Of a stretch of 64,000 bases of DNA, positions 466-61,153 are shown in pieces; within the stretch, counting starts at the first letter, position 1; every line of letters starts with the position of its first letter. The stretch spans positions 352,001-416,000 of IMG/VR virus record IMGVR_UViG_3300049988_000286, one strand, 5' to 3'. The stretch comes from a virus. Its lineage: Duplodnaviria > Caudoviricetes. The position numbers were made by a program, and so were the translations under genes. Below the pieces are notes generated by a model that had not been told where the DNA came from, searched no databases, and saw only the letters and a list, made by a program, of their open reading frames with translations.

Positions 466-1017
466 CTAAATCGCTTTGACGAACGATCCATCTGGCACCA
501 CGGCGGAGACGCTCCCCGCATCCTCGCCTTCATTGTCGTAGTAGCATCCCCGATCAGCCGTTCCCATGGCTTTCTGTTTGATCATCCAGCGATTGGCGTG
601 ATCGTCAGTAAGGGGATTATTGGGTTTGTTCTTCATCGCGCCGACGATGTGGTAACCTTGGATCGACGGTCGAGCAGTCAGGGCGACTTGTTCCCGGTTA
701 CTAAAGACGGCGCGCTCAAGGCCGTTCTCGGGCAGGAAATCTTCTACTGGGAGCCGCGCGTTGAACCCAGTGGCCCATCTTCCCAAGCGTTTGAGGGTCT
801 GGCTACCGGCGAGCATGGTCTTGCCATACTCGGAACCACCGTCCCAATCGTGACCATCGGCCCTTACGCCGATGCGTGCTTCGAGGGCTTCCCGTGCCGC
901 GTCCCGTGATCCGAGATGGAGGCCGTAATGGGAGCCGCGAAGATCACCCGATGGTGAGCCATGCCAGAACACGATCGGGACGGAGGCTTCGCAGATGAGG
1001 TCGATGAGGTAGCGCAT
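466..1017 (-). CDS. late gene with internal-protein-like N-terminus and possible ADP-ribosyltransferase-like core
   Basis: Starts MRYLIDLICEA, 4 nt after TAAATA; VFWHGS and LHLGS motifs. Confidence 0.7.
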   Translation of the reverse strand: MRYLIDLICEASVPIVFWHGSPSGDLRGSHYGLHLGSRDAAREALEARIGVRADGHDWDGGSEYGKTMLAGSQTLKRLGRWATGFNARLPVEDFLPENGLERAVFSNREQVALTARPSIQGYHIVGAMKNKPNNPLTDDHANRWMIKQKAMGTADRGCYYDNEGEDAGSVSAVVPDGSFVKAI

Positions 1018-1021
1018 CGGA

Positions 1022-1027
1022 TATTTA
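1022..1027 (-). promoter_or_regulatory. late promoter TAAATA
   Basis: TAAATA-4 nt-ATG(1017). Confidence 0.75.
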
Positions 1028-1031
1028 GCGC

Positions 1032-1060
1032 TTGACCGAACTCTGCTAATCAATTATAGC
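1032..1060 (+). promoter_or_regulatory. sigma70-type early promoter containing CGAACT
   Basis: TTGACC-17 nt-TATAGC. Confidence 0.7.
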
Positions 1061-1083
1061 GGTGGTCGAAACGGAGACACCCC

Positions 1084-1278
1084 ATGCTCGCAGTCAACGA
1101 TCTCGTCCACGCCACCATTATCGAGAACGGCTACTGGAAGGATTCCTGCAAGGGGAAGATCGTCGGCGAGACCGCCAACTTCTGGATTGTCGAGAGCCAT
1201 CACTGGCGCTTCAACAACAAGACCAAGCGTTTCGCCAAGGAGGGCGGCAACCTCTCCAAGCGCGAGCCGAAGGTTTAA
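1084..1278 (+). CDS. hypothetical protein
   Basis: GGAG SD, lies downstream of a promoter. Confidence 0.7.
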   Translation: MLAVNDLVHATIIENGYWKDSCKGKIVGETANFWIVESHHWRFNNKTKRFAKEGGNLSKREPKV

Positions 1279-1490
1279 CCCCTCCACGCCAGCCAATACA
1301 TCAGTGCGTCGGCTTCATCGCGAAACACTATTCTCCCCTCCGACACATGGACGAGCGACGAAGTATTGTCCGCGCACCATGCTATCGCCGCCCGCGCCTC
1401 TTGCGACCATCTACCGAAGGGGTGATCGACCTCGATCACCCACTCCTTGACGAGGGTCCGATACATCCGGGCAGCGCGAGGCGGGGTCAT
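1275..1490 (-). CDS. paralog family A small protein
   Basis: C-terminal IVFRDEADALMYWLAW. Confidence 0.7.
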   Translation of the reverse strand: MTPPRAARMYRTLVKEWVIEVDHPFGRWSQEARAAIAWCADNTSSLVHVSEGRIVFRDEADALMYWLAWRG

Positions 1491-1530
1491 GCGGGTTCGT
1501 TAGATCACGCGAGGTCGAGAAAGCAAATAG

Positions 1531-2721
1531 CTATTTCTTGATGCGCGTGAGGAACAGTTCCTCCCTCCATCCCTCGCGGGGCTCTCCTTGCTTCAAGGTC
1601 ACCTGATCGACAGGAACAAGAACCCACGAATCCGGTAGGTCCATCTTGCGCGCAGTCGAGACGCCTTCGATGCCCTTGTCCTCGAAGAAACCGGTCCACG
1701 AGAGGATTGACGATCGTGCGTTACCCTCGTTGGCGTATTTCTTCGCGGACTTGAACGTATCGACCATGCGGACATGATCCTTCCGATCCGTGTAGTCATA
1801 GTCGAACCCGGCGAAATACTTCCCGTCCTCGCCGTCGCGAAGGACATAGACGATCGACTCCGGTATCGAGATTGCCTCAACGGCATCCTCGATCTGTCGA
1901 TAAGAAAGAGTGAAGCCGTTCTGCCACCAAGGATTTTCGCCCCAATACTCCCACGAGGGAACACCCCTGCCACCCGATGAACCATCCGGACGCGTGTGCT
2001 TGATGTGATACTCGATCTGGCTCTCATCGAGATCGACGCGGATGGCGCGGCCGGAGTCCTTTTGCCGGTCCGCGCTGGTCTTCTTGTCCGACGATACAGT
2101 GAATTCGAGACCCGCCGGTACCGTGAAGATCGGCATCTCATGCGCGTGCTCATACGGGTTGTCGTAATTGTATGGCTTTCCCGCCGCGCGCCAAGCATCC
2201 GCCTCCGCGACGAGGCGATGATCACGCTCTGGATAGACCCACGCAGTAATGGTCACCGGCCGGGTAAAGCGCCAGCGCGAGCCCTTGACCATCTCCTTCA
2301 GCTTGGAAACCTTGGCCTCCTTTGCTACTGGCGGGTCGATCTTGGTTACGGCCCCGATGTGGGCAACCGATGATCCCCAGACGACGAACCGCAAGTCGCC
2401 GCCGAAGCGATCGATGACCCGCTGTTCAGCCGCCGCCGCTTCTGGGAACCGTTTTTTGATCGCACTCCATTGCCCATCGAACAGGCGGTAGCTCTCACCC
2501 CATGTCTTCCAAAGGTCATGCCCGGCGAGTTCTCGCAGCACCACATGCTCTTCTTCCGGGATGAGGTCTTCAAGCGAATGCGGTCTCGTGATCTGCGTGA
2601 CGCGCCCCTTTGTGGCGCGCTTCGAAGGCTGGCAGAACCGTTCCGAGAGCACAAACCCCGCCGAATAGATGGGGGTGCCCTTGGGTGCGCTCACGTAGTC
2701 GCCAATTTTGATATCGCTCAT
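1531..2721 (-). CDS. hypothetical protein
   Basis: Long ORF starting MSDIKIG, TTGACC promoter upstream. Confidence 0.8.
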   Translation of the reverse strand: MSDIKIGDYVSAPKGTPIYSAGFVLSERFCQPSKRATKGRVTQITRPHSLEDLIPEEEHVVLRELAGHDLWKTWGESYRLFDGQWSAIKKRFPEAAAAEQRVIDRFGGDLRFVVWGSSVAHIGAVTKIDPPVAKEAKVSKLKEMVKGSRWRFTRPVTITAWVYPERDHRLVAEADAWRAAGKPYNYDNPYEHAHEMPIFTVPAGLEFTVSSDKKTSADRQKDSGRAIRVDLDESQIEYHIKHTRPDGSSGGRGVPSWEYWGENPWWQNGFTLSYRQIEDAVEAISIPESIVYVLRDGEDGKYFAGFDYDYTDRKDHVRMVDTFKSAKKYANEGNARSSILSWTGFFEDKGIEGVSTARKMDLPDSWVLVPVDQVTLKQGEPREGWREELFLTRIKK

Positions 2722-2820
2722 GCCTAGATGGTAGCCTTCAACTCGCAAGCGGTCAACGGTTTATAGTTCGTGCTTGACTCACCCGTGATAATCGATTACC
2801 GACGCGGCGAGGAGATCACT

Positions 2821-4544: not shown

Positions 4545-4982
4545 TTAGGCAAATTTCACGCGAAATTGTGTTGTATCATCGTCTTCGAAGTCGCCGAATG
4601 TGACTTGCCCATTATATTGTGCCGCGAGCTTCTTTGCTAGTTTCTCGTAGACGGACGCTCTGGCGGTATTGTCATGCCTCGGTGTGGTGAAATATATCTC
4701 CTTCGGAGAGAACTTATCGTGTAAGTCTTTGACGATGGTGATCACCGTAGCGAACACCGCAAACGGAGTTGCTTCATTAGTCGGTTTGAGGGAGAACTTG
4801 GTGCCCCCTACCATATTTCCAAATTGGATATCCCATACTTTGTTATGCGCGCGAGCGACGAAGGCGTATGGTTTATTCTTGATCTCGAATTTGGCCAAAG
4901 CGTATTCGTGATCGATGTCCTCCCAACGCCATACCTGCTGTGAATCAAAGGCTTCTCTGATGATGTTGATTAGGTCTCGCAT
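4545..4982 (-). CDS. late gene with internal-protein-like N-terminus, possibly GNAT-like; paralog of 14203-14748
   Basis: MRDLINIIREA 4 nt after TAAATA; FATVITIV and RASVYEKL motifs. Confidence 0.75.
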   Translation of the reverse strand: MRDLINIIREAFDSQQVWRWEDIDHEYALAKFEIKNKPYAFVARAHNKVWDIQFGNMVGGTKFSLKPTNEATPFAVFATVITIVKDLHDKFSPKEIYFTTPRHDNTARASVYEKLAKKLAAQYNGQVTFGDFEDDDTTQFRVKFA

Positions 4983-4986
4983 TGCG

Positions 4987-4992
4987 TATTTA
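4987..4992 (-). promoter_or_regulatory. late promoter TAAATA
   Basis: TAAATA-4 nt-ATG(4982). Confidence 0.75.
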
Positions 4993-6381: not shown

Positions 6382-6387
6382 TAAATA
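6382..6387 (+). promoter_or_regulatory. late promoter TAAATA with SD-containing leader
   Basis: 21 nt to ATG 6409, AAGGAG in the leader. Confidence 0.7.
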
Positions 6388-6408
6388 GGGGAAAGGAGAC
6401 CTCCCCTC

Positions 6409-6903
6409 ATGCGCACCTACATCGACATCATCAACGAAGCACAGGAGCAACTCAACGAGTTGTTCGGCCTCTCCTCGAAGGAGAAGGCTGCGAAAAGCTT
6501 GGCTGCGACGGGTGACGAGATCAAGGCAGCTATGCAGATCAGACACACGATCGAGAGCGCGAAAGCCGTTGATGCTCTCGCAGTCAAGGCGCTGGGTCAA
6601 GGCGCTGATGCTGCGTTCTTCCAGAAGCTGGGTTTCGAATCGCGGATCAATCCACAGGAAGCACAGGGCACCTTCTATGTCCCCGATGTGTGGACCGATA
6701 TGAAGTCGGTGCATGAGTTCCAGACCGTCTACGGCGTTGAGCGCCTCGCTGGTCCGGTGAGTCAGCAGAACAAGATCGACGAATTCTCGATCGAGCGTCG
6801 CTACCCGGATCGCACCAACAAATGGGTGCCTCGTCGTGCATTTCAGGCGTGGATCAGCCGAGCGGACGGCAATCACGAGAAGCTGATCTTCCGCCTCAAA
6901 TAA
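6409..6903 (+). CDS. late gene with internal-protein-like N-terminus
   Basis: MRTYIDIINEA start. Confidence 0.8.
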   Translation: MRTYIDIINEAQEQLNELFGLSSKEKAAKSLAATGDEIKAAMQIRHTIESAKAVDALAVKALGQGADAAFFQKLGFESRINPQEAQGTFYVPDVWTDMKSVHEFQTVYGVERLAGPVSQQNKIDEFSIERRYPDRTNKWVPRRAFQAWISRADGNHEKLIFRLK

Positions 6904-15551: not shown

Positions 15552-15955
15552 GCGACCAAAGCTCCCACGAGCGCCCACGTGTCAGTCGCGACCTTGACCA
15601 GCGTTGCCGCCGCATATTGCCCCTTCATCTTGACGTAAGCGGTATCGCTTTGAAGCGTCACGCCCGCAGCGGCGACGAAACTGGTTTGCCCCGCCCCAAC
15701 CTGCTGCACATCGATGCGTGTGCCGATCGCCAGCGCAACAGAGGCATTGGTGGGAACGGTGTAGGTGTTGGGAGTGGCGACATCCATGCGCACGAAGGCT
15801 TCCGCATCCCCGGCCGCGATTGTGGTCGATGCCGTGTAGGTGTTGACGACGGTCTTGCGCGGCAGCAGGGTGAGGACATTCGACAGAAGGGCATTGAGGG
15901 TATCGCGAACATCTTTGCCGGTCGAACCGTTGAGAATGCTGGTCAGGATGGTCAT
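15548..15955 (-). CDS. virion/tail-associated structural protein
   Basis: TVPTNASVALAIGTRI...QYAAATLVKVATDTWALVG; TAAATA 4 nt upstream. Confidence 0.75.
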   Translation of the reverse strand: MTILTSILNGSTGKDVRDTLNALLSNVLTLLPRKTVVNTYTASTTIAAGDAEAFVRMDVATPNTYTVPTNASVALAIGTRIDVQQVGAGQTSFVAAAGVTLQSDTAYVKMKGQYAAATLVKVATDTWALVGALVA

Positions 15956-15959
15956 GCCG

Positions 15960-15965
15960 TATTTA
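15960..15965 (-). promoter_or_regulatory. late promoter TAAATA
   Basis: TAAATA-4 nt-ATG(15955). Confidence 0.75.
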
Positions 15966-20432: not shown

Positions 20433-20966
20433 TTACTCTCCCGCCTCGCGAGCGACGATCATGACGTTCTCGGGGCGGAAGACCACGATCTGACCTCTGA
20501 TCTGGCTCGACGCGTCATAACCCCCTACGAAGTCCGTGTAGGCAAGGAAGCGATTGAAGTCGGTCATACGCTTCGCCATGTCGAGGAAGTCGTCATAGTC
20601 ATAGCGGCTGTTTGTGTCAGGACCGAAGGTGTCATCCATGAACAGGCAATGGCCCTCATAGGCGGCGCGCATCTTTGCTTCGCGGTCACCGAGATCGAGT
20701 AGCGGACCCTTCTTGATGTAGCAGGAAAGGACGAAGCCTTTGGACCTCGCCCATGTGTTGGCGAGCCATTTCACATCGGTGACATAGACGCCCTGACCGA
20801 GTTCATCATAGCCTCGTGTCTTCGGCAGCCGAAAACCAGTGAAGCGGCGGTTGGTGCCGTGGTAGAGGATACGGGTGGTATCGAAGCCTTGTGCCTCTGC
20901 TTCGGCTTGCATTTTGGGAGAGATCGTCTTCATGATCCGCTCGCAGAGAATTTCATCGAAACGCAT
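20433..20966 (-). CDS. late gene with internal-protein-like N-terminus, H-clade ADP-ribosyltransferase-like (ART-PolyVal-like)
   Basis: MRFDEILCE start; LYHGT, GQGVYVT and QIVVF motifs. Confidence 0.75.
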   Translation of the reverse strand: MRFDEILCERIMKTISPKMQAEAEAQGFDTTRILYHGTNRRFTGFRLPKTRGYDELGQGVYVTDVKWLANTWARSKGFVLSCYIKKGPLLDLGDREAKMRAAYEGHCLFMDDTFGPDTNSRYDYDDFLDMAKRMTDFNRFLAYTDFVGGYDASSQIRGQIVVFRPENVMIVAREAGE

Positions 20967-20970
20967 CCGC

Positions 20971-20976
20971 TATTTA
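20971..20976 (-). promoter_or_regulatory. late promoter TAAATA
   Basis: TAAATA-4 nt-ATG(20966). Confidence 0.75.
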
Positions 20977-23438: not shown

Positions 23439-23919
23439 GTGTCGGGAGTGCGACCGCGAATTTGGTAGCAGAGAGGCCCTTGGTCAGCACGTGCGCGACA
23501 AGCACACGGAAGCAGCCGTGGAGGATGGGTTCGTCTCTGCCGAGCAGCGCGAGGTCTTTGAGGTAGATCGTAGCTACCTCCGCACCTCTCATGGCGTTCA
23601 GCGCCTTTCCGTGCTGATGACCTTCGACGCTGATACGGAAAAACTCTACCACCGCGATCTTCGCGTTGCCGCCGCCTATCTCCTCGACATTGCGACGCGG
23701 TATGAGGGTGCGTTTTTGGAGGAGCACTGGACCGGCTACGAGACGATGGAGATGCGCTTCGGTCTCTACCGTGAGGAAACCGACGAGGAATATCGTGATC
23801 GGCTCGAAACGGAAGCAGCACGCGAGGCAGAGCAGCGGTCCAAGATCGCGCGGGAGAGGGAGCGTGCGAACATCGACAAGGCTATCGCGGGTCTTCAGCA
23901 GAAGCGCGCTCGCCTCTAA
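23410..23919 (+). CDS. protein with an N-terminal C2H2 zinc finger
   Basis: CRECDREFGSREALGQHVRDKH. Confidence 0.7.
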   Translation: MVKGVTFDFKCRECDREFGSREALGQHVRDKHTEAAVEDGFVSAEQREVFEVDRSYLRTSHGVQRLSVLMTFDADTEKLYHRDLRVAAAYLLDIATRYEGAFLEEHWTGYETMEMRFGLYREETDEEYRDRLETEAAREAEQRSKIARERERANIDKAIAGLQQKRARL

Positions 23920-23922
23920 ATA
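23917..23922 (+). promoter_or_regulatory. late promoter TAAATA
   Basis: Overlaps the upstream stop; 4 nt to ATG 23927. Confidence 0.7.
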
Positions 23923-23926
23923 GATG

Positions 23927-24361
23927 ATGGATATCAAGCGGCTAATAGATGAGGCGGGGTTCGACGAATACGATCACGACACGGGGACTTCCGGCTTATG
24001 CGCGATGTTCGCACTTGCCCTATACCGCGTCGCGATCAAGGACCGTCCCCGCCTCATTCTATTAGGCTCAATCCGAGACGGTAAGCCCGCAATGGATCGC
24101 CGGGGCGGTATCTACTGGTCCCACGCTGCCGTAGAGATTGCGGGGCGCTTCTACGACATCGAAGGTGAGCAGCAGCGCGAGTGGATGATCGGCAATTACC
24201 TGTGGGGACTGCCACGAAATGCTACACCCGCCTTGCACGAATTGGCCCCGCCGGAATTCATTTCACAGATCAGGGGGACGCCCGCTGCGGTCGATTGGCC
24301 CTTCTACATTTCTTGCCGTGATCGTTTGATTAAAGCTGCGGGGACGATCTCCCAGCATTAA
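23927..24361 (+). CDS. late gene with internal-protein-like N-terminus and papain/transglutaminase-like Cys-His-Asp triad
   Basis: MDIKRLIDEA start; GLCAMFA, WSHAAV and FYDIEG motifs. Confidence 0.7.
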   Translation: MDIKRLIDEAGFDEYDHDTGTSGLCAMFALALYRVAIKDRPRLILLGSIRDGKPAMDRRGGIYWSHAAVEIAGRFYDIEGEQQREWMIGNYLWGLPRNATPALHELAPPEFISQIRGTPAAVDWPFYISCRDRLIKAAGTISQH

Positions 24362-24364
24362 ATA
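24359..24364 (+). promoter_or_regulatory. late promoter TAAATA
   Basis: 5 nt to ATG 24370. Confidence 0.7.
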
Positions 24365-24369
24365 CAGGT

Positions 24370-24609
24370 ATGACACAGCCTGTATCCATGGAAGAAATCA
24401 CCGCCCTCTACCGTGAACTCGAAGCGTGGTCCTACCTCCGCGACGGCATCTACGCCTTCGTCGATTTCGGTCTGATATCACAGCGTGCCGGGTTCGACTG
24501 TCTCGCCGATATGCAAACGATGATCACTCAAGGTTGGTCGGAACTGATCGATGAGCATCGTACCGCCGTTGAGGCGCTGCTAGCCCAGCATGGTCACCGA
24601 TTCTCCTGA
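24370..24609 (+). CDS. late hypothetical protein
   Basis: Follows TAAATA. Confidence 0.7.
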   Translation: MTQPVSMEEITALYRELEAWSYLRDGIYAFVDFGLISQRAGFDCLADMQTMITQGWSELIDEHRTAVEALLAQHGHRFS

Positions 24610-35042: not shown

Positions 35043-35777
35043 ATGTTCAACCAATCCATTCAAGAATTCGTCGAAGCAGTCAGTCCCCAGATGAATATCT
35101 GGCACAACACTACACGGAAGGGTGATACCGGCGCGGGACATACCTGTGAGACAATTATCTTCGGGAAGGAAGAAGACAACAAATCTCTCGCGGACTTCAT
35201 GGGTTTCGAGTGCAAGTCGGTCCTCGCCACATCGAAGAACGCGCGAGTCCGATTGCTCAATTTCGCAGGAGGGGCGGAGGCAGAATTGTGTAAGCGTTTT
35301 GGGAAGGTGAGCCCCACGCGAGGTTACAATTCCTTTACCCGCCAACTACGATGCAACAAGCCGATCCGGGCGAACGGCTCCTCGATTGCCCTCGTCATCG
35401 AAGATAATGAACTCTCCCTACTCGTCGATGGACAAGAGCGCGTCGGAGAATGGCTTGTTGATGCGCCGGGGCGCAGTATTGCAACCAAGGTCGCTGACAA
35501 GATCGCCGATATGGCGCTGATCCGCTACGAGAAGCGCATCCAAGATGGTTTGCAGCAATATCGCTATACGGGGGTGGACTTCCACACCGGTTTGTCTCTT
35601 CCGCGCCTCATCACCGCTTTCGGCGCACAACACATTGCGGTAGAATTCCGCTACACGGACAAGAAGGACTATGGCACGAGTTTCAACATGTCCATGCGCC
35701 ACATGGAGGGATACTGGCCCCATCATACGACGGTAACGTGGGGCGATGGTCCGCCGAGACTCACTGCTAGGCGATAA
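35043..35777 (+). CDS. MvaI/BcnI-family endonuclease-like protein
   Basis: GAGHTCE...EDN...ADFMGFECKS (PD-D/ExK type). Confidence 0.7.
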   Translation: MFNQSIQEFVEAVSPQMNIWHNTTRKGDTGAGHTCETIIFGKEEDNKSLADFMGFECKSVLATSKNARVRLLNFAGGAEAELCKRFGKVSPTRGYNSFTRQLRCNKPIRANGSSIALVIEDNELSLLVDGQERVGEWLVDAPGRSIATKVADKIADMALIRYEKRIQDGLQQYRYTGVDFHTGLSLPRLITAFGAQHIAVEFRYTDKKDYGTSFNMSMRHMEGYWPHHTTVTWGDGPPRLTARR

Positions 35778-35780
35778 ATA
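35775..35780 (+). promoter_or_regulatory. late promoter TAAATA
   Basis: 5 nt to ATG 35786. Confidence 0.7.
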
Positions 35781-35785
35781 GCAGT

Positions 35786-36421
35786 ATGAGCACCGTCGAG
35801 TTTCGCAAGATCATCTTTCGCCAAGGGCCTACCCTCGACCTTCCCGGCGAGCCGTTGCGCCTCCTCCCGGCGATCTACCATTCACCGCTCGACATCGCCG
35901 AGATCGCTTTTGGAAATGATCAGGGCCGCATCTTTATCGGCCCTGATCTCTCCGCCAAGTTACCGCAAAGCGTTCGTGTTGCCTTTCCCTACCAGAACAT
36001 CGAGATCGTGGGTGAAAACAGCCGCGACGCCTTCGCCAACATGCACGGCGATCGTTTGCGCGAGGACGATGCGCGCGACCATTACGCCGCCGTCCTCGAT
36101 CCGAGCGCCAGCCTTGCGCCGGTGCTGGTCAACATGAACCCGTACGTGATCCCGGTTGCTCACACATGGAGTCAAATCGATTATCTGATCACTGATGAGA
36201 AACGCGTTGCACTTCGACAAGGACGTCTCACCGTGGTGCGAACCCCTGTCGCCACCACTGTCACGGACAATGCCCGGTTACCACGCGGAGCCGGAACGCT
36301 ACCCACGACGGCGTTCGCCGAGTATCGACTGACCGTCAACAACTCCGGCATGTTGGTCTATCGGAGCCTTGGCCTCAAGCCCGTCCTGCTGTGGTTCCGG
36401 CGATCGTCAGGCAAGCGCTAG
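35786..36421 (+). CDS. late protein, probably structural
   Basis: RKIIFRQG...LPGE...D...IFIG N-terminus; TAAATA promoter. Confidence 0.7.
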   Translation: MSTVEFRKIIFRQGPTLDLPGEPLRLLPAIYHSPLDIAEIAFGNDQGRIFIGPDLSAKLPQSVRVAFPYQNIEIVGENSRDAFANMHGDRLREDDARDHYAAVLDPSASLAPVLVNMNPYVIPVAHTWSQIDYLITDEKRVALRQGRLTVVRTPVATTVTDNARLPRGAGTLPTTAFAEYRLTVNNSGMLVYRSLGLKPVLLWFRRSSGKR

Positions 36422-37124: not shown

Positions 37125-37130
37125 TAAATA
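37125..37130 (+). promoter_or_regulatory. late promoter TAAATA with SD-containing leader
   Basis: 30 nt to ATG 37161; GAGG SD. Confidence 0.65.
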
Positions 37131-37160
37131 GCAGGTAATCTTTTATCGAGGTCGTTCAAC

Positions 37161-37538
37161 ATGCATCCCATTAACAAGAAGAATTTCGGCGCTGGCAAGA
37201 TCAAGGTCTGGTTCCACAACGGTACCGCTCTGGTCACGGGCTACATCGTGAAGCAGCTTGGCGTGTCGAAGTATGTTGTCACGGATGGCGCTGTCACCAA
37301 GACGCTCACCCTCGCTCCGACTGCGGCGCTGGCCGACATCCTCACCGGTGTTCAGGCGATCGACGCCACCCACACTGTTGCGATGATCGCCGATTATTGC
37401 ACCACCACCGTTACGGTTGGTGCGACCGCCCACTACGCGAAGCGCATCTTGAGCAAGACCGTGATCACCGTTGGTGGCACCACCTTCTCTTGGACGCTCG
37501 GTACGCCCGCTGGTACCGTGTACGCCATCGCGAAGTAA
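37161..37538 (+). CDS. late virion structural protein
   Basis: T/A/G/V-rich, highly biased codons, own promoter and terminator. Confidence 0.8.
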   Translation: MHPINKKNFGAGKIKVWFHNGTALVTGYIVKQLGVSKYVVTDGAVTKTLTLAPTAALADILTGVQAIDATHTVAMIADYCTTTVTVGATAHYAKRILSKTVITVGGTTFSWTLGTPAGTVYAIAK

Positions 37539-39432: not shown

Positions 39433-39438
39433 TAAATA
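39433..39438 (+). promoter_or_regulatory. late promoter TAAATA
   Basis: 4 nt to ATG 39443. Confidence 0.75.
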
Positions 39439-39442
39439 TCGA

Positions 39443-39691
39443 ATGCGAGACTTCATCGACATCATCGAGAACATGGCGCAGAGCGAGCGTGGTCCCTACT
39501 TCGACCGCGTATGGTCCGCGTATGAGAAAGTGCGCGACCGCTCGCAACCTGATGCGGTGGCGCTCCTAGACCCCAAGACGATCGAGCACGTTCGCCGTCG
39601 CCATCACATCAGCTCGAACCAGCGTCAGCGCGCCCGTTTGAAGACCGATACCGATACGGATAATTCGGTCTTCGATGGCGGACAGGATTAG
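39443..39691 (+). CDS. late gene with internal-protein-like N-terminus
   Basis: MRDFIDIIEN start. Confidence 0.75.
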   Translation: MRDFIDIIENMAQSERGPYFDRVWSAYEKVRDRSQPDAVALLDPKTIEHVRRRHHISSNQRQRARLKTDTDTDNSVFDGGQD

Positions 39692-41149: not shown

Positions 41150-41206
41150 ACGAGAGCCTTGTGGCTCGATCGTCGTCGTAGCTTCATATCAACTGGTGCA
41201 TGTCTC

Positions 41207-41212
41207 TATTTA
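41207..41212 (-). promoter_or_regulatory. late promoter TAAATA upstream of tRNA-Ile(UAU)
   Basis: Overlaps the upstream stop codon; 57 nt before the tRNA 5' end. Confidence 0.6.
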
Positions 41213-48114: not shown

Positions 48115-48483
48115 TTATGTCAGACCAAGTTCCTGCATGTCAACCGAAGGAACGGTCCAATTCTTTATCCTTTTACCCCAGATGGCCTTCATCCTCGGTA
48201 AAGTGAGGGGCTCGATCCGAAGAGCGCCGCAATCAGCACCCAAGTAGTCCGCAAGAAACTCATCTCGCGACTGGCGTAATCCTCGTGCATCACCGAAAAC
48301 ATCCTCGCCGAACATGACACCAACATGTCGCGGAACAGTGTCCCAAACATCGTCGAAGATTCCTACTAGGGTTCCGCCATGAAGATCGTGCAGCGTCGCC
48401 GCCATCACCATGCATTCACCGCGTTGATAACGCTCTAGCGCCGACCTGTCATCATCGAAAGCGTCGATCTCAAAAATTCGCAT
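48115..48483 (-). CDS. late gene with papain/transglutaminase-like triad; paralog of 23927-24361
   Basis: MRIFEI start; GECMVMA, PRHVGV and FGDARG motifs. Confidence 0.7.
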   Translation of the reverse strand: MRIFEIDAFDDDRSALERYQRGECMVMAATLHDLHGGTLVGIFDDVWDTVPRHVGVMFGEDVFGDARGLRQSRDEFLADYLGADCGALRIEPLTLPRMKAIWGKRIKNWTVPSVDMQELGLT

Positions 48484-48487
48484 CTGG

Positions 48488-48493
48488 TATTTA
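48488..48493 (-). promoter_or_regulatory. late promoter TAAATA
   Basis: 4 nt to ATG 48483. Confidence 0.75.
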
Positions 48494-49954: not shown

Positions 49955-50305
49955 CTATGCCATATTCGGCAAGTTAGGCGCAATCGGGCACCGCGATATC
50001 CTTACCAGAAAGTATCGCGCAGCCACCAAAGCTTTGAGCCGAACCTTGATCGGGACATCCGTCTTCTTGGCGACGCGGAGGCATCGAGCCACGAAATGAA
50101 TATCGGCGATATGTTGGCGACGACGCTTGTCCGCTGCATCGCCGCGATAACTCTTGTCATACTCGCAGTCATGCTTGAAGCACGCTTTGTCGAGTTCATC
50201 GATGGGAGCGCCGCCGCAATTACCCGGCCCGCAATAGTTGCCATGGAAGCGGATGAAGCGCTTCGTTGGTGCTAATGGGGCTTCGAACAGATGGCGGCTG
50301 CGCAT
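49955..50305 (-). CDS. phospholipase A2-like late protein with internal-protein-like N-terminus
   Basis: MRSRHLFEA start; YCGPGN Ca-loop, DKACFKHDCEY (HD) and ADIHF motifs. Confidence 0.8.
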   Translation of the reverse strand: MRSRHLFEAPLAPTKRFIRFHGNYCGPGNCGGAPIDELDKACFKHDCEYDKSYRGDAADKRRRQHIADIHFVARCLRVAKKTDVPIKVRLKALVAARYFLVRISRCPIAPNLPNMA

Positions 50306-50309
50306 CTGT

Positions 50310-50315
50310 TATTTA
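50310..50315 (-). promoter_or_regulatory. late promoter TAAATA
   Basis: 4 nt to ATG 50305. Confidence 0.75.
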
Positions 50316-50413: not shown

Positions 50414-50590
50414 TTACATTTCGTATAGGACTACCGTCCAATCTCGATCATCGAAGTGGTAGCGGCGGTAGTGGACTTGTCCGAAGAGTCCATCGATCCC
50501 GTCGATGTAATCACCGCTATTGGGAACGGTGGGCATGTCGCGCTCACCAAGTATGCGATTGTCGGCATCGCGGAAGATGACGCGGTTCAA
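50414..50590 (-). CDS. 58-aa protein coupled to rpsU (not in the supplied ORF track)
   Basis: TTG start overlaps the rpsU TGA; MNRVIFRDADNRILG... Confidence 0.55.
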   Translation of the reverse strand: MNRVIFRDADNRILGERDMPTVPNSGDYIDGIDGLFGQVHYRRYHFDDRDWTVVLYEM

Positions 50591-50787
50591 CGATCGCGTT
50601 CCGCTCGCTGACGATCGGCTTTCCTCGATCGCTTGACCGCAGCGGCGCGAGCCTTGGCCTTAACTTCGCTGGGCTTCATGTAGTGGGCGCGCTGTTTCAT
50701 TTCACGCAGGATGCCCTCGCGCTGCATCTTGCGCTTCAAGACCTTCAAGGCCTTGTCCATATTCCCGTCCTGAACCGCTACCCGCAT
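50587..50787 (-). CDS. rpsU: ribosomal protein bS21
   Basis: DKALKVLKRKMQREGILREMKQRAHYMKPSE matches alphaproteobacterial bS21; AAGGA SD. Confidence 0.9.
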   Translation of the reverse strand: MRVAVQDGNMDKALKVLKRKMQREGILREMKQRAHYMKPSEVKAKARAAAVKRSRKADRQRAERDR

Positions 50788-50969: not shown

Positions 50970-51045
50970 TGGCAGGAGCGCCGAGACTCGAACTCGGAAC
51001 CTACGGGATTGGAAGCCGGTGCTCTACCAATTGAGCTACACTCCT
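50970..51045 (-). tRNA. tRNA-Trp(CCA)
   Basis: A1-U72 and G73 identity elements, TTCCAAT loop; anticodon stem has only 3 pairs. Confidence 0.75.
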
Positions 51046-51237: not shown

Positions 51238-51525
51238 GAGCGTCGCCCGAGACTCATCGACGATGTGCGCACCGCTCCCGTGGGATGTGCGATCTCGTCG
51301 GGTCGTACGTCGGGCGACGACTCCAAACTATCAATCCGGGGAAGCTGCTTCCAAGCGCGTGCTTCATGTCAAAGAGCCCCTGTGGAGGGCGCTTCGGCAG
51401 ATGTTGCTTGGAGAAGGGGACTTCAGGTGTCCCGAACCTCAACCAATACCCGCCTAGAACGGGTATGGCAAACCACCCCGCTCACCCGAAGGTGATCGAC
51501 CAACTAATCGTGGTTGAGGAGGTTG
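51238..51525 (-). ncRNA. candidate multi-domain structured RNA at the head of the tRNA operon
   Basis: Three nested inverted-repeat domains and a cUUCGg tetraloop on the minus strand; no credible ORF. Confidence 0.55.
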
Positions 51526-51540
51526 TCGTGTTCATGCTTT

Positions 51541-51572
51541 TATTTATACCGAAGGGGTCGCCGGGCTGTCAA
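51541..51572 (-). promoter_or_regulatory. overlapping sigma70 (TTGACA...TATAAA) and T4-type late (TATAAATA) promoter
   Basis: TTGACA at 51572-51567; TATAAATA at 51548-51541. Confidence 0.75.
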
Positions 51573-51576: not shown

Positions 51577-51582
51577 TAAATA
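51577..51582 (+). promoter_or_regulatory. late promoter TAAATA
   Basis: 4 nt to ATG 51587. Confidence 0.75.
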
Positions 51583-51586
51583 CAGC

Positions 51587-52909
51587 ATGGCTAGAAAAAT
51601 CACCGACCTTCCGCAGTCTACCCTTTCGGCGACCGATCTCGGTGCTGCCTCCATCCCCGTTTCCAATGTGGGCAGCAACGCCTCGGTGCTGGAACGCGTG
51701 TTGGCGCGCGACTTCATGTCGTTGCTCGGTGGGAGCTATCGCGGCACGTGGAGCGCGTCGCCTTCGCGGCCGTATAACTTCGGCGACATCGTGACTGTCC
51801 TCTCAATCATCACTCCAATCTACTATGTCTGCCTTATCGCGGGCACTACCTCCAATCCCTCTGCGAACACGGGCTGGCAACTGATCAATTCCGTGGTGCG
51901 TGGTACCGATGCTGGACCACCTACAGTCGGGGTAGATGGCCAATTGATCATTCAGGATGGCTTGCTGTATTTCAATAGCAACGGCGCGCGTATTCCGCTG
52001 CTTCGTGGCGACGCCCCGCTATTGTCGAACCAGATCGCGCGTGAGCCGGGGACGATCAACATTCTGGATGATCCAACCTTCGCCAGTGGAAGCACATGGA
52101 CGGTGGTGGGTTTCAATCGGGTGGCGTCAACTAATGACTTCGGTAACGGTTTTGCCTATCAGACTAGCGGCACGGGCAGTTTCAGCCTCAAGTCGAAAAT
52201 GACCATCCCTTACACAAGCGGAGAGCAACAGTACGTACGTTATTTTATAACGAAGACCGCTGATTTCGCGGGTACGATCTCGCTCACGTACATAAAGGCT
52301 AATAAAGACGGCAGCAATGCATCAGCGCAGACGGCTGCCACGATCAACCCGACAACGCTTAATACTTTTAGCTTCGGGCTAGATACTAACTTTTCCAACT
52401 TTGGAAGTGGTAACATTACTGCTTTCGGTGTAGAGGCGACGGTTACGGCAGGATCGATCACCGTATTGAGGCTAGAATATTACAAACCTCTAAATCTCCG
52501 GTATCTACCTACGACGACATCCACGTCGGTGTTCTACTACGGTAACAGCACTTTGCTTACGCCACCGGACACGCTGATCAACGCCAGTAAACCCACTGAT
52601 ATGGGTAGTCTTTCTGGCAACATCACGCTCAACTTCTATGCCTATCGAAGTGCAAATTTCACGCTCACTGGCAACAGCACATTGGTCAATCCATCTGGCG
52701 TCGCGTTCTCCGGTTTCGGTGGACGCATCCGCATTACTCAAGACCCTGCTAACTCTGGCGCGCCTTACACTCTAGCCTATGGGTCGGCGTGGAAGTTTCC
52801 CGGCGGCGCGCCGACGCTCTCTACGACACCGGGGGCGGTTGATCTCTTGGTCTATTTCGTCAACACCGACCTGACCTTTGAGTGCACGCTCGTCAAGGAT
52901 GTGAAGTAA
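51587..52909 (+). CDS. tail fibre / receptor-binding-type structural protein
   Basis: ARKITDLP N-terminus; C-terminal FTLTGNSTLVNP...ITQD...WKFPGG.PTLSTTPGAVDLL module. Confidence 0.75.
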   Translation: MARKITDLPQSTLSATDLGAASIPVSNVGSNASVLERVLARDFMSLLGGSYRGTWSASPSRPYNFGDIVTVLSIITPIYYVCLIAGTTSNPSANTGWQLINSVVRGTDAGPPTVGVDGQLIIQDGLLYFNSNGARIPLLRGDAPLLSNQIAREPGTINILDDPTFASGSTWTVVGFNRVASTNDFGNGFAYQTSGTGSFSLKSKMTIPYTSGEQQYVRYFITKTADFAGTISLTYIKANKDGSNASAQTAATINPTTLNTFSFGLDTNFSNFGSGNITAFGVEATVTAGSITVLRLEYYKPLNLRYLPTTTSTSVFYYGNSTLLTPPDTLINASKPTDMGSLSGNITLNFYAYRSANFTLTGNSTLVNPSGVAFSGFGGRIRITQDPANSGAPYTLAYGSAWKFPGGAPTLSTTPGAVDLLVYFVNTDLTFECTLVKDVK

Positions 52910-53427
52910 TGTTCTTCGTCCATCCTTTGTTTGGGAAAGGCGGGGTGTCGCTCAATCCAATTGTGAGCCCCACCGTTGTCGAATCCTCCAATAGTTGGAT
53001 AAACCCCGGCAACGGTCTTTCGCCCAACGGAACCTACACCACCTATAATAGCAATGGCGGGACTACCAATTATTCGGCGGGTAGCTTCCCTGCGACGATT
53101 GTTCCCACTGGAAGTGCCATTAAGGGTATTGAGTTGTACGTTACTGGATACTCAAGCACAGCGAATGTCTGGACGACCGGTCAAATCTATCTTGGTAAAA
53201 CACCGGGAACACGCACAGGGAACAACAAGGGTGATAATGGTTCGGGAGGCAACTTCTGGTCCACGACACCCGAGACGAAAATATTCGGTGGCCCGACCGA
53301 TCTTTGGGGAGAGACGTGGACCGTGGCGGAAGTTCGGGCGCTTTCCATATTTACCGCACCCTCGAACTACCCGTTCGTCAGCGCAACTTTCTACCTCGAT
53401 GGTTACGCGGTTCGCGTTTATACATGA
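52909..53427 (+). CDS. tail-fibre-associated protein
   Basis: TAATG coupling; FGGPTDLWG.TWT motif. Confidence 0.7.
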   Translation: MFFVHPLFGKGGVSLNPIVSPTVVESSNSWINPGNGLSPNGTYTTYNSNGGTTNYSAGSFPATIVPTGSAIKGIELYVTGYSSTANVWTTGQIYLGKTPGTRTGNNKGDNGSGGNFWSTTPETKIFGGPTDLWGETWTVAEVRALSIFTAPSNYPFVSATFYLDGYAVRVYT

Positions 53428-53457: not shown

Positions 53458-53463
53458 TAAATA
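53458..53463 (+). promoter_or_regulatory. late promoter TAAATA
   Basis: 4 nt to ATG 53468. Confidence 0.75.
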
Positions 53464-53467
53464 CCGT

Positions 53468-54163
53468 ATGATCTACGCGCGCAAAATTGACGACCAATGG
53501 GTCGAACTCTACGGTGGCTTCGAAGCTGATCGCGACTACGAGGTTGAGGTCGAGTACGAGAACGAAGACGGTCGTCCAATGACGCGCACGGAGACGCGCC
53601 GCGACACCTTCCAATATCCCGCCAACTGGTGCGAGGCTGCGACAGAGGAAGAGCGTACCGCACTCGGCATCTTCCCCGTCGTGGACGCCCCCTATCCCAC
53701 GGGGCGCTACGCCTCGATCGTGCCCGCACTCGACGATACGGCCGATCGTCCCCTCCGCATCTACACGACGATGCCCTATAGCGCAGAAGAAGCAGCGGAG
53801 ATGGTGTGGCGCGAGATCAAGCAGCATCGCCTCGTAGTTCTTGCGATCGGTGCCCCTACCCCGAGCGGGCTCGCGGATTGCGACGATGCTGCGCGTATCA
53901 ACGTCGCGGGTGGTGTCCAGATGGCCACGATTGCCAAGATGAACCAGCAACCCTTCGAAGTGCCGTGGACGATGCGCGACAATTCAGTAGTGATGCTGAC
54001 CGCCGACGCCATGATCGCCATGGGGTTGGCGGTAGGGCAGCACACCTCACGGGTGTTCGGCTATTCGCAGTATCTCCGCAACGCCGTGGCCGATCTGGTA
54101 GCAGATGGTGCGAGCAGCGAAGCCATCTTCGCTCTCGACATCAAGCAGGGCTGGCCCTCATAA
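53468..54163 (+). CDS. DUF4376-like tail-fibre assembly protein
   Basis: WTMRDNSVVMLTADAMIAMG...GWP C-terminus. Confidence 0.7.
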   Translation: MIYARKIDDQWVELYGGFEADRDYEVEVEYENEDGRPMTRTETRRDTFQYPANWCEAATEEERTALGIFPVVDAPYPTGRYASIVPALDDTADRPLRIYTTMPYSAEEAAEMVWREIKQHRLVVLAIGAPTPSGLADCDDAARINVAGGVQMATIAKMNQQPFEVPWTMRDNSVVMLTADAMIAMGLAVGQHTSRVFGYSQYLRNAVADLVADGASSEAIFALDIKQGWPS

Positions 54164-58127: not shown

Positions 58128-58153
58128 ACAGCGGGAGTGCTAGCACAGTGGAT

Positions 58154-58951: not shown

Positions 58952-58961
58952 AGGATCAGAC

Positions 58962-59285
58962 ATGAACCGCATCACCATCAATGGCGTGACAATCGAGGGC
59001 GGACGCGATATCCGCGTCGTTGGACGAAGCGTGCTCATCGACGGGCAGAAAATCGATATCGGCTCGATCGAGGGCTCAACACTCCGCGTCGTCGTAGAGG
59101 GCGATCTCGCCTCACTGACCTGTGATGGATCGGCAGAAGTCACGGGCGGGGTTCAGGGGAGCGTCTCGGCTGGTGGGAGTGTCAAGTGCGGTGACATCAC
59201 GGGCGCGGTTAATGCGGGAGGCTCGGTCAAAGGCGCGGCGATCTCCGGACCCGTTAATGCCGGGGGATCAGTCAAGTTGCGTTGA
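58962..59285 (+). CDS. beta-helix repeat protein
   Basis: Repeated GxVxAGGSV units. Confidence 0.75.
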   Translation: MNRITINGVTIEGGRDIRVVGRSVLIDGQKIDIGSIEGSTLRVVVEGDLASLTCDGSAEVTGGVQGSVSAGGSVKCGDITGAVNAGGSVKGAAISGPVNAGGSVKLR

Positions 59286-59316
59286 CGCCTTGGTAGAGTT
59301 CGGATAGATGTAGGGG

Positions 59317-59895
59317 ATGATCGATACTTCGTTCTCCACCATAGCCGGGCTGGCGCTTCGCGTCATGGCCGATTACGCGGAGCAACCGGGTATGAGCGGC
59401 GCGACCGGATACACGTTGCACCAAGCGTTATTCAAGGTGTGCGAGACCCGCGAGAGCATCACTTCGGCGAGTGACAACTACCCCTCCTATATCTGGTGGT
59501 ACCTTGGCACCGACGAACACGGTGAGGTCATTCCCATTCTCGATCTTGGCAAGCTGGCGTGCGTGCCCTTGCGCGATCAACCCCGCCGCCATCGCTATGT
59601 ATGGCCGCGTGAGATCAATGATGATGATGGTCCATGGGCGGTTGCTGTTTCAGAACCACCGTGGTCTATCCTCTATCCCAGTGCCACCTATGCGATGATG
59701 ACCATGGGGATCAGCATTGGCACGCGCGTCTGCACGAGGCTTGTAGCGGAGCATTACCGGTGCAGTTACGAGTATGACGACTGGGACACCCGCATCGAGC
59801 ACGAGATAGTCTTCATCGATCGCAGCCCGGTGATCGATGTTCCGCTCACGTTCGAGAACCGAGGTCCAGAATTCCGAGGATTGCGTTTTGAATAA
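59317..59895 (+). CDS. hypothetical protein
   Basis: TTGACG-17 nt-TAGATG promoter upstream. Confidence 0.65.
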   Translation: MIDTSFSTIAGLALRVMADYAEQPGMSGATGYTLHQALFKVCETRESITSASDNYPSYIWWYLGTDEHGEVIPILDLGKLACVPLRDQPRRHRYVWPREINDDDGPWAVAVSEPPWSILYPSATYAMMTMGISIGTRVCTRLVAEHYRCSYEYDDWDTRIEHEIVFIDRSPVIDVPLTFENRGPEFRGLRFE

Positions 59896-60385
59896 GATCG
59901 TGTCGCACCTTGATGGTGATACCTTCCGGATCGAGGTTCCGGAGGATTTCCTCGTGCTCAAAGGCATCGATTGCGAGGTGGGCAAATATACGGGGTCACC
60001 GAGAACAACTACGCCGACTTATCAGTTGTCGGCGTTCATGGAGGACTATCTCCGGACTCTACTCAATCACATACCTCCGATGAGCTTCGACAAGGGTGCG
60101 ATCTCTAGCGACGCCACGACGGTGGAGGCATTGTTGGAGATCATGGGCTACAACCATACGGTGCGAGTCAAGGCGCGCCCGAGCGACGACGATCTCGGGG
60201 AGATCGGTGATGACGTAGAGATGCTCTGGCCGCACATGAACCAATTCGTGCTTAAATGTCGATCAGAGGAGACCGCCATGTTGCTCGCGGTGCGCTTCGA
60301 TATGATTGATGGCGGGGCGGCTCGTCGCAGCGTCAACGATATGATCGAACTCGCCGCAGAGATACACCGGGCACGGAGCCGTTAG
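59888..60385 (+). CDS. hypothetical protein with family A-like motif
   Basis: LKCRSEETAMLLAVRF. Confidence 0.6.
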   Translation: MNKIVSHLDGDTFRIEVPEDFLVLKGIDCEVGKYTGSPRTTTPTYQLSAFMEDYLRTLLNHIPPMSFDKGAISSDATTVEALLEIMGYNHTVRVKARPSDDDLGEIGDDVEMLWPHMNQFVLKCRSEETAMLLAVRFDMIDGGAARRSVNDMIELAAEIHRARSR

Positions 60386-61143
60386 CCGGAGCGATCGAGA
60401 CTATTGAGGTAATCGCAGTAGAGAGCGTCGAGTGACTTATCGCTGCGAAGATGCTTTGAACCGTTTGCCTTACGATCGATGATCCGAAGGTTCGTCCAAT
60501 GTCCTACAAGGCTGGCTGGAAGAGAGAGACGCCATCCGTCGTAAACACTGAAAATGTGGTCGATCGGTGTTTCAGCAGAACGTGTCTGATTCGGTGCAAA
60601 TATATGGCCGTGCTCGCGATAGTTTCGTAGTGTATATCTCATAACATCGGCTCGATAGCGCCGCATCGCCGACCGATCTCTTCCGTCAACGTTCAGTTTG
60701 GCATCCCAAGTAGCTTTGATCTTGGCGTGCCACTCCAAGCTTCGTTTATAACCTCGTTGTGGCGCGGCATTTCGCTTTTCGGCAATTTGTGCACGAACCT
60801 CTGGGTTGCTTGACCAGTGACCAAGGTGTCCAGTCCTATCCTCGTACGTCTTTTGCATCCTCATTTGTACCTCGGGGCATCGACGCTGCGCAGATAAGGA
60901 CGAGTAAGTAAGGTAACGATTCTCAAACCATCGGACCGGAACATGGTCAACTGGGCATTGAGGAACAGACCACACATCGTTCAAAATATGCCAGCATCGT
61001 TGCTTCGGAACGGCATCGGAGGGGAGAAAAGAAGTAGCCGACACAATGTCAGCCCACAGTGATGGCTCACGGTTACATAGCCACCGGCAGTTGTTCCTTG
61101 GATCGGGATATCGCTGAAGGTATTCTTGAAGGAGAGTTTTCAT
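60382..61143 (-). CDS. HNH-type homing endonuclease-like protein
   Basis: IDHIFS...NLRII...NGSK; AT-richer than its flanks; TAAATA 4 nt upstream. Confidence 0.7.
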   Translation of the reverse strand: MKTLLQEYLQRYPDPRNNCRWLCNREPSLWADIVSATSFLPSDAVPKQRCWHILNDVWSVPQCPVDHVPVRWFENRYLTYSSLSAQRRCPEVQMRMQKTYEDRTGHLGHWSSNPEVRAQIAEKRNAAPQRGYKRSLEWHAKIKATWDAKLNVDGRDRSAMRRYRADVMRYTLRNYREHGHIFAPNQTRSAETPIDHIFSVYDGWRLSLPASLVGHWTNLRIIDRKANGSKHLRSDKSLDALYCDYLNSLDRSG

Positions 61144-61147
61144 CTCC

Positions 61148-61153
61148 TATTTA
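61148..61153 (-). promoter_or_regulatory. late promoter TAAATA
   Basis: 4 nt to ATG 61143. Confidence 0.7.

Follow-up and report, generated by a model that had tools for sequence, protein, structure and literature searches.

Introduction

Late genes of bacteriophage T4 are transcribed from promoters made up of a lone 8-bp TATA box that lies approximately one helical turn before the start and is not accompanied by a -35 element (PMC2988020). T4 late transcription involves the gp55 sigma, the gp33 co-activator, and the gp45 sliding clamp (PMC2988020, PMC1524935, PMC7892883). The T4 box spans positions -13 to -6, and a late-promoter variant, CTAAATA, which begins at -12, is known from phage Aeh1 (PMC1524935). 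Here, we analyse a TAAATA box that stands 4-5 nucleotides (nt) before ATG start codons in a 64,000-nt stretch (hereafter, the window) of the virus record IMGVR_UViG_3300049988_000286 (Duplodnaviria; Caudoviricetes; bases 352001-416000), as well as in the remainder of that genome.

Starts of transcription at or next to a start codon are established in several bacteria. Leaderless transcripts are common in Bradyrhizobium, in which 192 start sites coincide exactly with the start codon, and the same paper cites phage phiYS40 for promoters of leaderless phage genes (PMC4842269). In Deinococcus-Thermus, a -10 region next to the open reading frame (ORF) has been established experimentally, and its distance matters in Deinococcus (PMC12340547). 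Among the large phages considered below, PA5oct relies on host RNA polymerase, and its omics paper gives sigma70-type promoters only (PMC7318152).

The record analysed here, a contig from leaf samples, comprises 499,572 bp (57.2% GC), is rated complete by CheckV, and carries nine tRNA genes within the window. A megablast search with 8 kb of the window against cultured phages yielded no near-identical cultured relative, and a scan of viral_contigs with a single sequence returned one distant locus only. An original prediction, made from the window, took its TAAATA sites to be T4-type late promoters positioned so as to produce leaderless mRNAs. Judged from the letters of the whole genome and of its relatives, it is likely that the box is a late promoter read by a phage homologue of gp55 and that it gives rise to leaderless mRNAs wherever ATG follows after 4 or 5 nt.

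Spacing between the box and the start codon

The genome contains 171 TAAATA sites, and the histogram of their distances to ATG, which the original prediction had proposed as a check, confirms that the spacing is far from random: an ATG follows at a gap of 4 nt in 76 cases and at a gap of 5 nt in 27 (together 103 of the 171 boxes), and each of the other gaps from 0 to 12 nt accounts for only 0-4. When all 4096 hexamers were scanned genome-wide at gaps of 0-12 nt to ATG, TAAATA at gap 4 ranked first (76 observed, 25.8-fold), followed by hits that read the same site in a shifted register. At gaps of 4-5 nt, there is no enrichment for any of the 18 one-mismatch variants, including the equally AT-rich TAAAAA, TTAATA, and TATATA. 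The logo reads (C/A)TAAATA-nnnG-ATG or (C/A)TAAATA-nnn-g-Y-ATG; its information is confined to the box from -1 to +5, the bases from -45 to -2 being unconserved, and the base before the box at the 103 sites is C in 64 and A in 28.

The codons placed in this way open real genes far more often than ATGs in general: an ORF of at least 100 aa lies behind 82 of the 103 box-adjacent ATGs vs. 18% of random ATGs, and 80 of the 103 are the starts of genes chosen by a codon-usage caller. By class, 91 sites precede a leaderless ATG whose ORF has 60 aa or more, 4 a leaderless GTG, and 12 a short ORF; 35 have a leader of 18-68 nt with a Shine-Dalgarno (SD) sequence, and 29 belong to none of these classes. 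Leader lengths are bimodal: the spacing is 4-5 nt at 107 sites, and at 35 others it measures 18 nt or more and includes an SD, with no SD-led site between the two groups. Boxes thus come either with no leader or with one that has room for an SD, as expected of a promoter rather than of a ribosome-binding element.

TAAATA sites in the window

The window contains 19 TAAATA sites, whereas 100 dinucleotide shuffles gave a mean of 5.4 (standard deviation 2.25, maximum 11), and none reached 19. Eighteen had been counted originally, all of them at gene starts; this placement holds for 18 of the 19 and fails for the additional site, 53348(-), which has no start codon downstream and is probably a chance occurrence. 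The 13 sites at which the box had been reported to abut an ATG are all borne out, with the ATG in each case opening an ORF of 79-440 aa; the gap measures 5 nt at 24359 and 35775 and 4 nt at the other eleven. If two mini-ORF sites are counted, ATG lies 4-5 nt past the box at 15 of the 19 sites. Likewise, the three sites described as having leaders with an SD proved correct: 6382 (21 nt), 37125 (30 nt), and 63272 (27 nt). The sites are as follows:

1015..1027, minus strand: cTAAATA, 4 nt, ATG; 183-aa gene 469-1017(-), MRYLIDLICE..., with a capsid-targeting-like N-terminus
4980..4992, minus strand: cTAAATA, 4 nt, ATG; 145-aa gene 4548-4982(-), MRDLINIIRE...
6382..6411, plus strand: cTAAATA, 21-nt leader, AGGAG, ATG; leadered late promoter of the 164-aa gene 6409-6900(+)
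15953..15965, minus strand: cTAAATA, 4 nt, ATG; 135-aa gene
20964..20976, minus strand: tTAAATA, 4 nt, ATG; 177-aa gene
23917..23929, plus strand: cTAAATA, 4 nt, ATG; 144-aa gene; box TAA doubles as the stop codon of ORF 23290-23919, which lies upstream
24359..24372, plus strand: tTAAATA, 5 nt, ATG; 79-aa gene; box TAA doubles as the stop codon of the preceding gene
35775..35788, plus strand: aTAAATA, 5 nt, ATG; 211-aa gene; box TAA doubles as the stop codon of ORF 35043-35777
37125..37163, plus strand: cTAAATA, 30-nt leader, GAGG, ATG; leadered late promoter of a 125-aa gene
39433..39445, plus strand: gTAAATA, 4 nt, ATG; 82-aa gene 39443-39688(+), MRDFIDIIEN...
41199..41212, minus strand: cTAAATA (box 41207), 5 nt, ATG; 5-codon mini-ORF MHQLI, 41187-41201(-)
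48481..48493, minus strand: cTAAATA, 4 nt, ATG; 122-aa gene directly after tRNA-Thr and ahead of three tRNA-Ser genes
50303..50315, minus strand: gTAAATA, 4 nt, ATG; 116-aa gene
51533..51572, minus strand: TTGACA (51567-51572), 18-nt spacer, TATAAATA (51541-51548), 5 nt, ATG; sigma70-type promoter
51577..51589, plus strand: cTAAATA, 4 nt, ATG; 440-aa gene
53348..53353, minus strand: orphan TAAATA with G before the box; no start codon downstream
53458..53470, plus strand: cTAAATA, 4 nt, ATG; 231-aa tail or tail-fibre protein (phrog_2837, 4e-11)
61141..61153, minus strand: cTAAATA, 4 nt, ATG; 253-aa gene
63242..63277, minus strand: cTAAATA (box 63272), 27-nt leader, AAGGA, ATG; leadered late promoter of an 87-aa gene

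The 135-aa protein at 15953..15965(-) matches C-terminal families of tail-fibre/virion proteins (phrog_21510 at 6e-21, phrog_18179, and phrog_8780). Genes 23927-24361 and 24370-24609, both on the plus strand, abut, and each has its own box. The units that begin at 51577..51589(+) and 51533..51572(-) stand back to back, with their ATGs (51533/51587) 51 nt apart.

Identity of the box and its target genes

A gp55-family sigma of 290 aa is encoded at genome positions 183414-184286(-), where its gene adjoins a gp47/SbcD-like nuclease gene, as in RaK2. It matches phrog_12791 at 5.7e-72, phrog_234 (the family of T4 gp55 itself) at 2.7e-24, and T4 gp55 directly at 2.5e-5. The closest cultured homologues are those of PA5oct and Phosso (42% identity), followed by RaK2 and XaC1 (36-38%); the homologues in RaK2, PA5oct, and XaC1 carry late-sigma annotation.

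Leaderless targets of the box include genes for a gp15-like sheath stabiliser, the large terminase, an endolysin, a baseplate wedge, virion proteins, and tail-fibre-like proteins. Genes for the portal, the prohead protease, the major head protein, and a 3284-aa virion protein are preceded by the same box 18-68 nt upstream, with an SD in the leader. A -35 element within one mismatch is found at only 11 of the 171 sites. It is therefore strongly supported by the genome's letters that (C/A)TAAATA is a putative gp55-type late promoter, and to this extent the original assignment stands: there is a gp55 homologue, there is no -35 element, the targets are late genes, and the box also precedes SD-led late genes here and in Phosso. 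The T4 consensus on which that assignment relied does not apply, since the real consensus is (C/A)TAAATA, of the Aeh1 type; the T4 octamer TATAAATA occurs 11 times in 500 kb, equal to a reversed-pattern control, and is not enriched. A transcription start about 5-6 nt past the box had also been expected. This suits the 5-nt class, in which T4 numbering (box from -13 to -6) places the A of ATG at +1 and a pyrimidine precedes ATG in 24 of 27 cases, but not the dominant 4-nt class.

Searches of the genome for a phage RNA polymerase with PF00562 and PF00940 found none, the PF00940 search having been run without a positive control. In addition, no tail sheath or tail tube was found with PF17482, with PF06841, or by tblastn using the sheath of the relative L044.

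Signals at and around the box-adjacent start codons

The sequences around the box-adjacent ATGs differ from those of other genes in several respects. An SD core occurs at 2 of 80 leaderless starts vs. 403 of 616 other genes (at some candidate start), with a background of 11.7% per site; the other genes have a clear SD, as AAGGA, AGGAG, and GGAGA are enriched 4-6-fold upstream of their starts. The ratio ATG:GTG:TTG is 91:4:0 at leaderless starts vs. 156:37:17 at SD-led starts. The minimum free energy of the first 36 nt is -3.2 kcal/mol at leaderless starts vs. -5.0 kcal/mol (p = 2e-6), and the weaker 5' fold is also found in the 43 leaderless genes that do not share the N-terminal tag described below (p = 8e-4).

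Intergenic spaces are very short. Seven divergent back-to-back pairs have their ATGs 20-51 nt apart, with the space taken up by the two boxes, and at 33 of the 103 sites the box overlaps the stop codon of an upstream same-strand ORF (TAA in 22, TAR in 11). Termination-reinitiation coupling was considered as a general cause of this arrangement and rejected, since only these 33 boxes overlap an upstream stop and seven pairs are divergent. The presence of a separate box before each abutting same-strand gene is to be expected if only a 5'-terminal AUG is usable. The transcripts had been predicted to be monocistronic; however, given the 33 boxes that run into an upstream stop codon, they are probably nested rather than strictly monocistronic, and terminator-like hairpins, found just upstream of 6 of the 171 boxes (3.5% vs. 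0.9% of random positions), are too few to argue for monocistronic units.

Both of these observations bear on an alternative in which UAAAUA acts, additionally or mainly, in the RNA, as a non-SD ribosome-loading element (S1-type or standby) on longer read-through RNAs. Wherever a box overlaps an upstream same-strand stop, read-through RNAs with the motif before an internal AUG must exist, and the scarcity of terminator-like hairpins points the same way. Nonetheless, we consider this alternative improbable: AU-rich one-mismatch hexamers show no excess, a strictness far beyond any known S1 or AU-enhancer preference, and ribosome loading is impossible where the box lies 18-68 nt upstream of SD-led late genes, both here and in Phosso. 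Moreover, the divergent pairs have no upstream gene from which to read through, and the ATG-only bias, together with the sharp 4/5-nt spacing, suits coupling to the start of transcription.

Conservation in relatives and occurrence in other phages

Homologues of the gp15-like protein are present on many contigs of 400-570 kb. Uncultured relatives were sampled as 21-kb stretches rather than whole records. In four of approximately 500 kb (53-61% identity, 47.6-55.1% GC), ATG follows the box after 4 or 5 nt at 5 of 10, 5 of 9, 5 of 10 (including one gap-5 ATG read off the sequence of this third relative), and 7 of 8 boxes. Relatives at 47-48% identity have a mixed layout (4 of 9 and 2 of 6 boxes), and those at 45% and 37% identity have 1 of 8 each, with SD leaders instead. 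Two orthologous genes align across all sampled phages at their first methionine and the residues after it, which shows the box-adjacent ATG to be the genuine start. Upstream of these two genes, close relatives have the box, 4 or 5 nt, and ATG with varied spacer letters, so that the spacing rather than the spacer sequence is conserved, and distant relatives have the box followed by a 22-27-nt leader with an SD.

In more remote phages, the leaderless layout occurs at chance level: 4 of 141 boxes in Phosso, 20 of 611 in PA5oct, 5 of 306 in RaK2, and 6 of 163 in XaC1. T4 has no TAAATA-N4-ATG at all, and its count for N5 is at control level. In Phosso, TAAATA precedes the portal, scaffold, and baseplate genes, always with 20-60-nt leaders that contain an SD. 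Thus, the rationale first offered for the layout, namely, that leaderless translation is common in Alphaproteobacteria, is insufficient, since Phosso, which infects Sinorhizobium, has the box and almost no leaderless layout.

The conservation among relatives also bears on whether the promoter might be real and its short spacing a by-product of compaction, or of duplication of gene families together with their upstream regions, with many of the starts poorly translated. A shared N-terminal tag in 48 of the 91 leaderless genes, of the MR-x-x-I-x-L-x-E type, speaks for this, as the count may partly reflect family expansion, and so do the very short intergenic spaces. However, the other 43 genes are diverse and serve late functions unrelated to one another (e.g., terminase, endolysin, baseplate, and fibres); box, spacing, and ATG are kept with differing spacer letters across phages of 47-59% GC and 53-61% protein identity; and the exclusive use of ATG and the weak 5' structure point to selection on translation. 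Of the alternatives weighed here, a mere by-product of this sort is the one to which we assign the lowest probability.

The tag peptides are of the MRNWINLVE, MRDLINIIRE, or MLLRDLFEA type, end in [LIFVM]-x-E, and are seen at 469-1017(-), 4548-4982(-), 6409-6900(+), and 39443-39688(+), as well as genome-wide. We take the tag to resemble the T4 capsid-targeting sequence with its prohead-protease cleavage site. A gp21-like prohead protease (phrog_207) is encoded in the genome.

Several side observations concern these relatives and their hosts. In the relative L041, at 1538-1604, a box, 4 nt, and ATG precede the orthologue of a virion-protein gene, but TAA comes immediately after, so that the ORF has one codon only; the orthologue itself begins approximately 50 nt further on, with no clear SD, and the site may be a decayed leaderless start. 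In L038-L041, a conserved tellurite-resistance-like block (TelA, vWA-TerF, TerC, and TerD) lies approximately 3-9 kb upstream of the gp15-like gene, in the late region. A full-length MucR/Ros-family gene (PF05443, 130 bits) is located near the gp15-like gene of our genome, at 299171-299557(+), and is kept in the relatives of approximately 500 kb (L038 12738-13241, L039 12838-13380, L040 12847-13383, and L041 12767-13297), which hints at alphaproteobacterial hosts. Together with the Sinorhizobium host of Phosso, the MucR/Ros gene points to Alphaproteobacteria as candidate hosts. A partial copy of the gp15-like protein (P0001), 99% identical, is filed at NCBI under an Oxalobacteraceae metagenome-assembled genome; it is either mis-binned phage DNA or a host hint at odds with the MucR signal.

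Sigma70-type promoters, tRNA units, and translation factors

Site 51541(-) had been taken for a late promoter directed into a tRNA unit. The tRNA unit is indeed present, but the promoter is of the sigma70 type (TTGACA-N18-TATAAATA) rather than a plain late promoter. It precedes a 17-codon ORF (51485-51535(-)), tRNA-Ile, an odd tRNA, tRNA-Thr, and the gene for ribosomal protein bS21. It belongs to a small class of consensus sigma70 promoters, TTGACA-N17/18-TATAAATA, that drive leader peptides with tRNA clusters and stand at genome positions 25192, 350263, and 403541, and approximately ten further sigma70-type -35/-10 pairs lie 5-8 nt before ATGs genome-wide. For example, TTGACC-N17-TACCAT at 2719-2756(-) lies 6 nt before the ATG of a 396-aa ORF that has no SD, which makes this ORF a candidate for a leaderless gene that is not late. 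Since such pairs abut start codons, leaderless expression probably extends beyond the late genes.

The 17-codon ORF is rich in Thr, Ser, and Ile and lies ahead of tRNA-Ile(GAU) and tRNA-Thr. In a similar manner, the last codon of the mini-ORF MHQLI (41187-41201(-)), ATA, is read by tRNA-Ile(UAU) at 41055-41149, and the box-ATG is approximately 58 nt before that tRNA. From their codons, both mini-ORFs look like codon-matched leader peptides that would themselves be leaderless. The odd tRNA, predicted by ARAGORN at 50970-51045(-), was given a four-base anticodon (tcca) but no amino acid; its anticodon may be truly expanded, or the call may be a quirk of the prediction.

Two phage copies of bS21 (PF01165; 65 and 62 bits) are encoded, one in the window at 50587-50787(-) and the other at genome positions 86981-87136(+). 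The copy in the window is SD-led (GAAAGGA), lies directly downstream of the cluster of tRNA-Ile, the odd tRNA, and tRNA-Thr, and probably belongs to the unit of the sigma70-type promoter at 51541-51572. Phage initiation factors IF1, IF2, and IF3 were not found in the genome with PF01176, PF11987, and PF00707. A late-specific route of translation, distinct from that of SD-led host mRNAs, had been proposed for this phage; given the approximately ten sigma70-type pairs that abut ATGs and the result for initiation factors, this proposal is speculative and not supported.

Proposed mechanism and weight of the evidence

In the mechanism that we favour, host RNA polymerase carrying the phage gp55-family sigma would read (C/A)TAAATA as a -10-like box without a -35 element. 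Wherever ATG follows after 4-5 nt, which is the case for 15 of 19 boxes in the window and 103 of 171 genome-wide (approximately 60%), the first RNA base would be the A of the AUG or one lying 1-2 nt away, and the resulting leaderless mRNAs would be translated through recognition of the 5'-terminal AUG rather than through SD/anti-SD pairing. As only the 5'-proximal cistron would be usable, each gene would have its own box, even where neighbouring genes abut or the box shares bases with the stop codon upstream. For the head proteins made in greatest quantity (portal, prohead protease, and major capsid protein), the same box would be used with an 18-68-nt leader and an SD. Reading of the box by the gp55 homologue, the exact +1, the late timing, and leaderless translation are what we infer from the data described above.

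The claim that late transcripts begin at or next to the AUG fares well in that the 4-5-nt spacing is non-random and kept in relatives, so that a leaderless mRNA, or a leader of 0-2 nt, is the best reading; it fares less well in that the 4-nt class is off the T4 +1. Overall, there is good support, though not proof, for a leaderless reading of genes with ATG 4 or 5 nt after the box. Several observations weigh against the proposed mechanism. T4 numbering places the A of the 4-nt class at -1 and +1 on the T of ATG; if the reading is correct, the start in this class must lie either one base closer than with T4 gp55 or at the frequent G before ATG, which would leave a 1-nt leader. No obvious target gene is found for 29 of the 171 boxes. 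The tagged genes (48 of 91) are not fully independent observations, the difference in 5' structure is partly a GC effect (50.3% vs. 53.5%), and the gene set rests on our own simple caller. Finally, the best match in the genome to gp33 with the T4-family profile phrog_254 has an E value of only 0.125, and gp45 gave no match with phrog_223, PF09116, or the T4 protein, although both proteins diverge fast.

The results for gp33 and gp45 also favour an alternative in which the box is a -10-only site for the host sigma70 holoenzyme, or for another phage factor, so that the genes would be leaderless yet not specifically late. Some sites are clearly of the sigma70 type (genome 25192, 350263, and 403541), approximately ten other -35/-10 pairs are found just before ATGs, and a lone -10 box next to the ORF drives many genes in Deinococcus-Thermus (PMC12340547). 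However, TAAATA lacks the conserved final T of the sigma70 -10 hexamer, and few sites have a -35 element within one mismatch. Its sequence is that of the gp55-family core and of the variant found in Aeh1 (PMC1524935); moreover, the phage has a gp55 homologue of its own, and the box stands before genes for virion, lysis, and packaging functions. We therefore regard such an alternative as very improbable, and a late promoter read by the gp55 homologue as the better explanation.

A more elaborate scenario may be sketched, although we hold it to be rather unlikely as a whole. A subclade of phages of approximately 500 kb might have rebuilt a T4-type late regulon such that about a hundred leaderless genes have their own gp55-type promoters, with a sigma that initiates one base closer than T4 gp55 and a late shift of ribosomes to 5'-AUGs (e.g., through the two bS21 copies). 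This would separate low-copy late proteins, such as injected head proteins, fibres, terminase, and lysin, from SD-led capsid proteins and from host mRNAs.

Should the 5' ends map to the predicted positions, the genome would offer a comparison, within one genome and under one promoter type, between approximately 95 leaderless and approximately 35 SD-led genes, and orthologous genes would have switched between the two modes during evolution. The layout opens questions about the cost and benefit of leaderless initiation in a proteobacterial host, about the choice of start site by gp55-type sigmas, and about the initiation mode as a control of protein dosage. In practice, a gene caller that relies on an SD will put these starts in the wrong place; the rule of a box followed by 4 or 5 nt and ATG fixes approximately 100 start codons here.

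Comparison with known systems

T4 late mRNAs carry SD leaders. The T4 late promoters resemble those described here in having a strict AT-rich -10-like box, no -35 element, a phage sigma of the gp55 family, and a location ahead of genes for virion, lysis, and packaging proteins, and differ in the box (the octamer TATAAATA vs. (C/A)TAAATA) and in the size of the sigma (185 aa vs. 290 aa). The 7-nt consensus of Aeh1 is the same as here, with C at -12, whereas the paper that describes it gives no fixed 4-5-nt distance to start codons (PMC1524935). Phosso (469 kb), PA5oct, RaK2, and XaC1 share with our phage the gp55 subfamily (36-42% identity) encoded next to a gp47-like gene, and differ in the leaderless layout.

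The cultured T4-like phage of SAR11, HTVC008M, has a modest excess at a gap of 5 nt, which is found in 14 of its 26 TAAATA-N3-7-ATG matches, often in the form TAAATAGTAnnATG, vs. 15 control matches. In contrast to the gap of 4 nt that dominates here, this gap places A at the T4-canonical +1, and in the AT-rich genome of HTVC008M the signal is much weaker.

Among leaderless systems, phiYS40, a large lytic myovirus of Thermus, is said (in work by Sevostyanova et al. from 2007) to have middle and late gene classes with mostly leaderless mRNAs and promoters that abut the ORFs. These promoters reportedly have an extended -10 element read by the host primary sigma, in a phylum in which leaderless genes are said to be the norm. 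In our phage, by comparison, the box is of the gp55 type, and other genes have a strong AAGGAG SD. Cellular genes of Deinococcus-Thermus and Bradyrhizobium likewise have a -10 element set a short, constant distance ahead of the start codon, which drives leaderless expression, but this element is of the cellular sigma70 type and does not define a phage late regulon.

A literature search retrieved no paper on gp55-type late promoters fused to start codons, and a search for CTAAATA returned primer sequences only. On their own, gp55-type promoters and leaderless mRNAs are both well studied.

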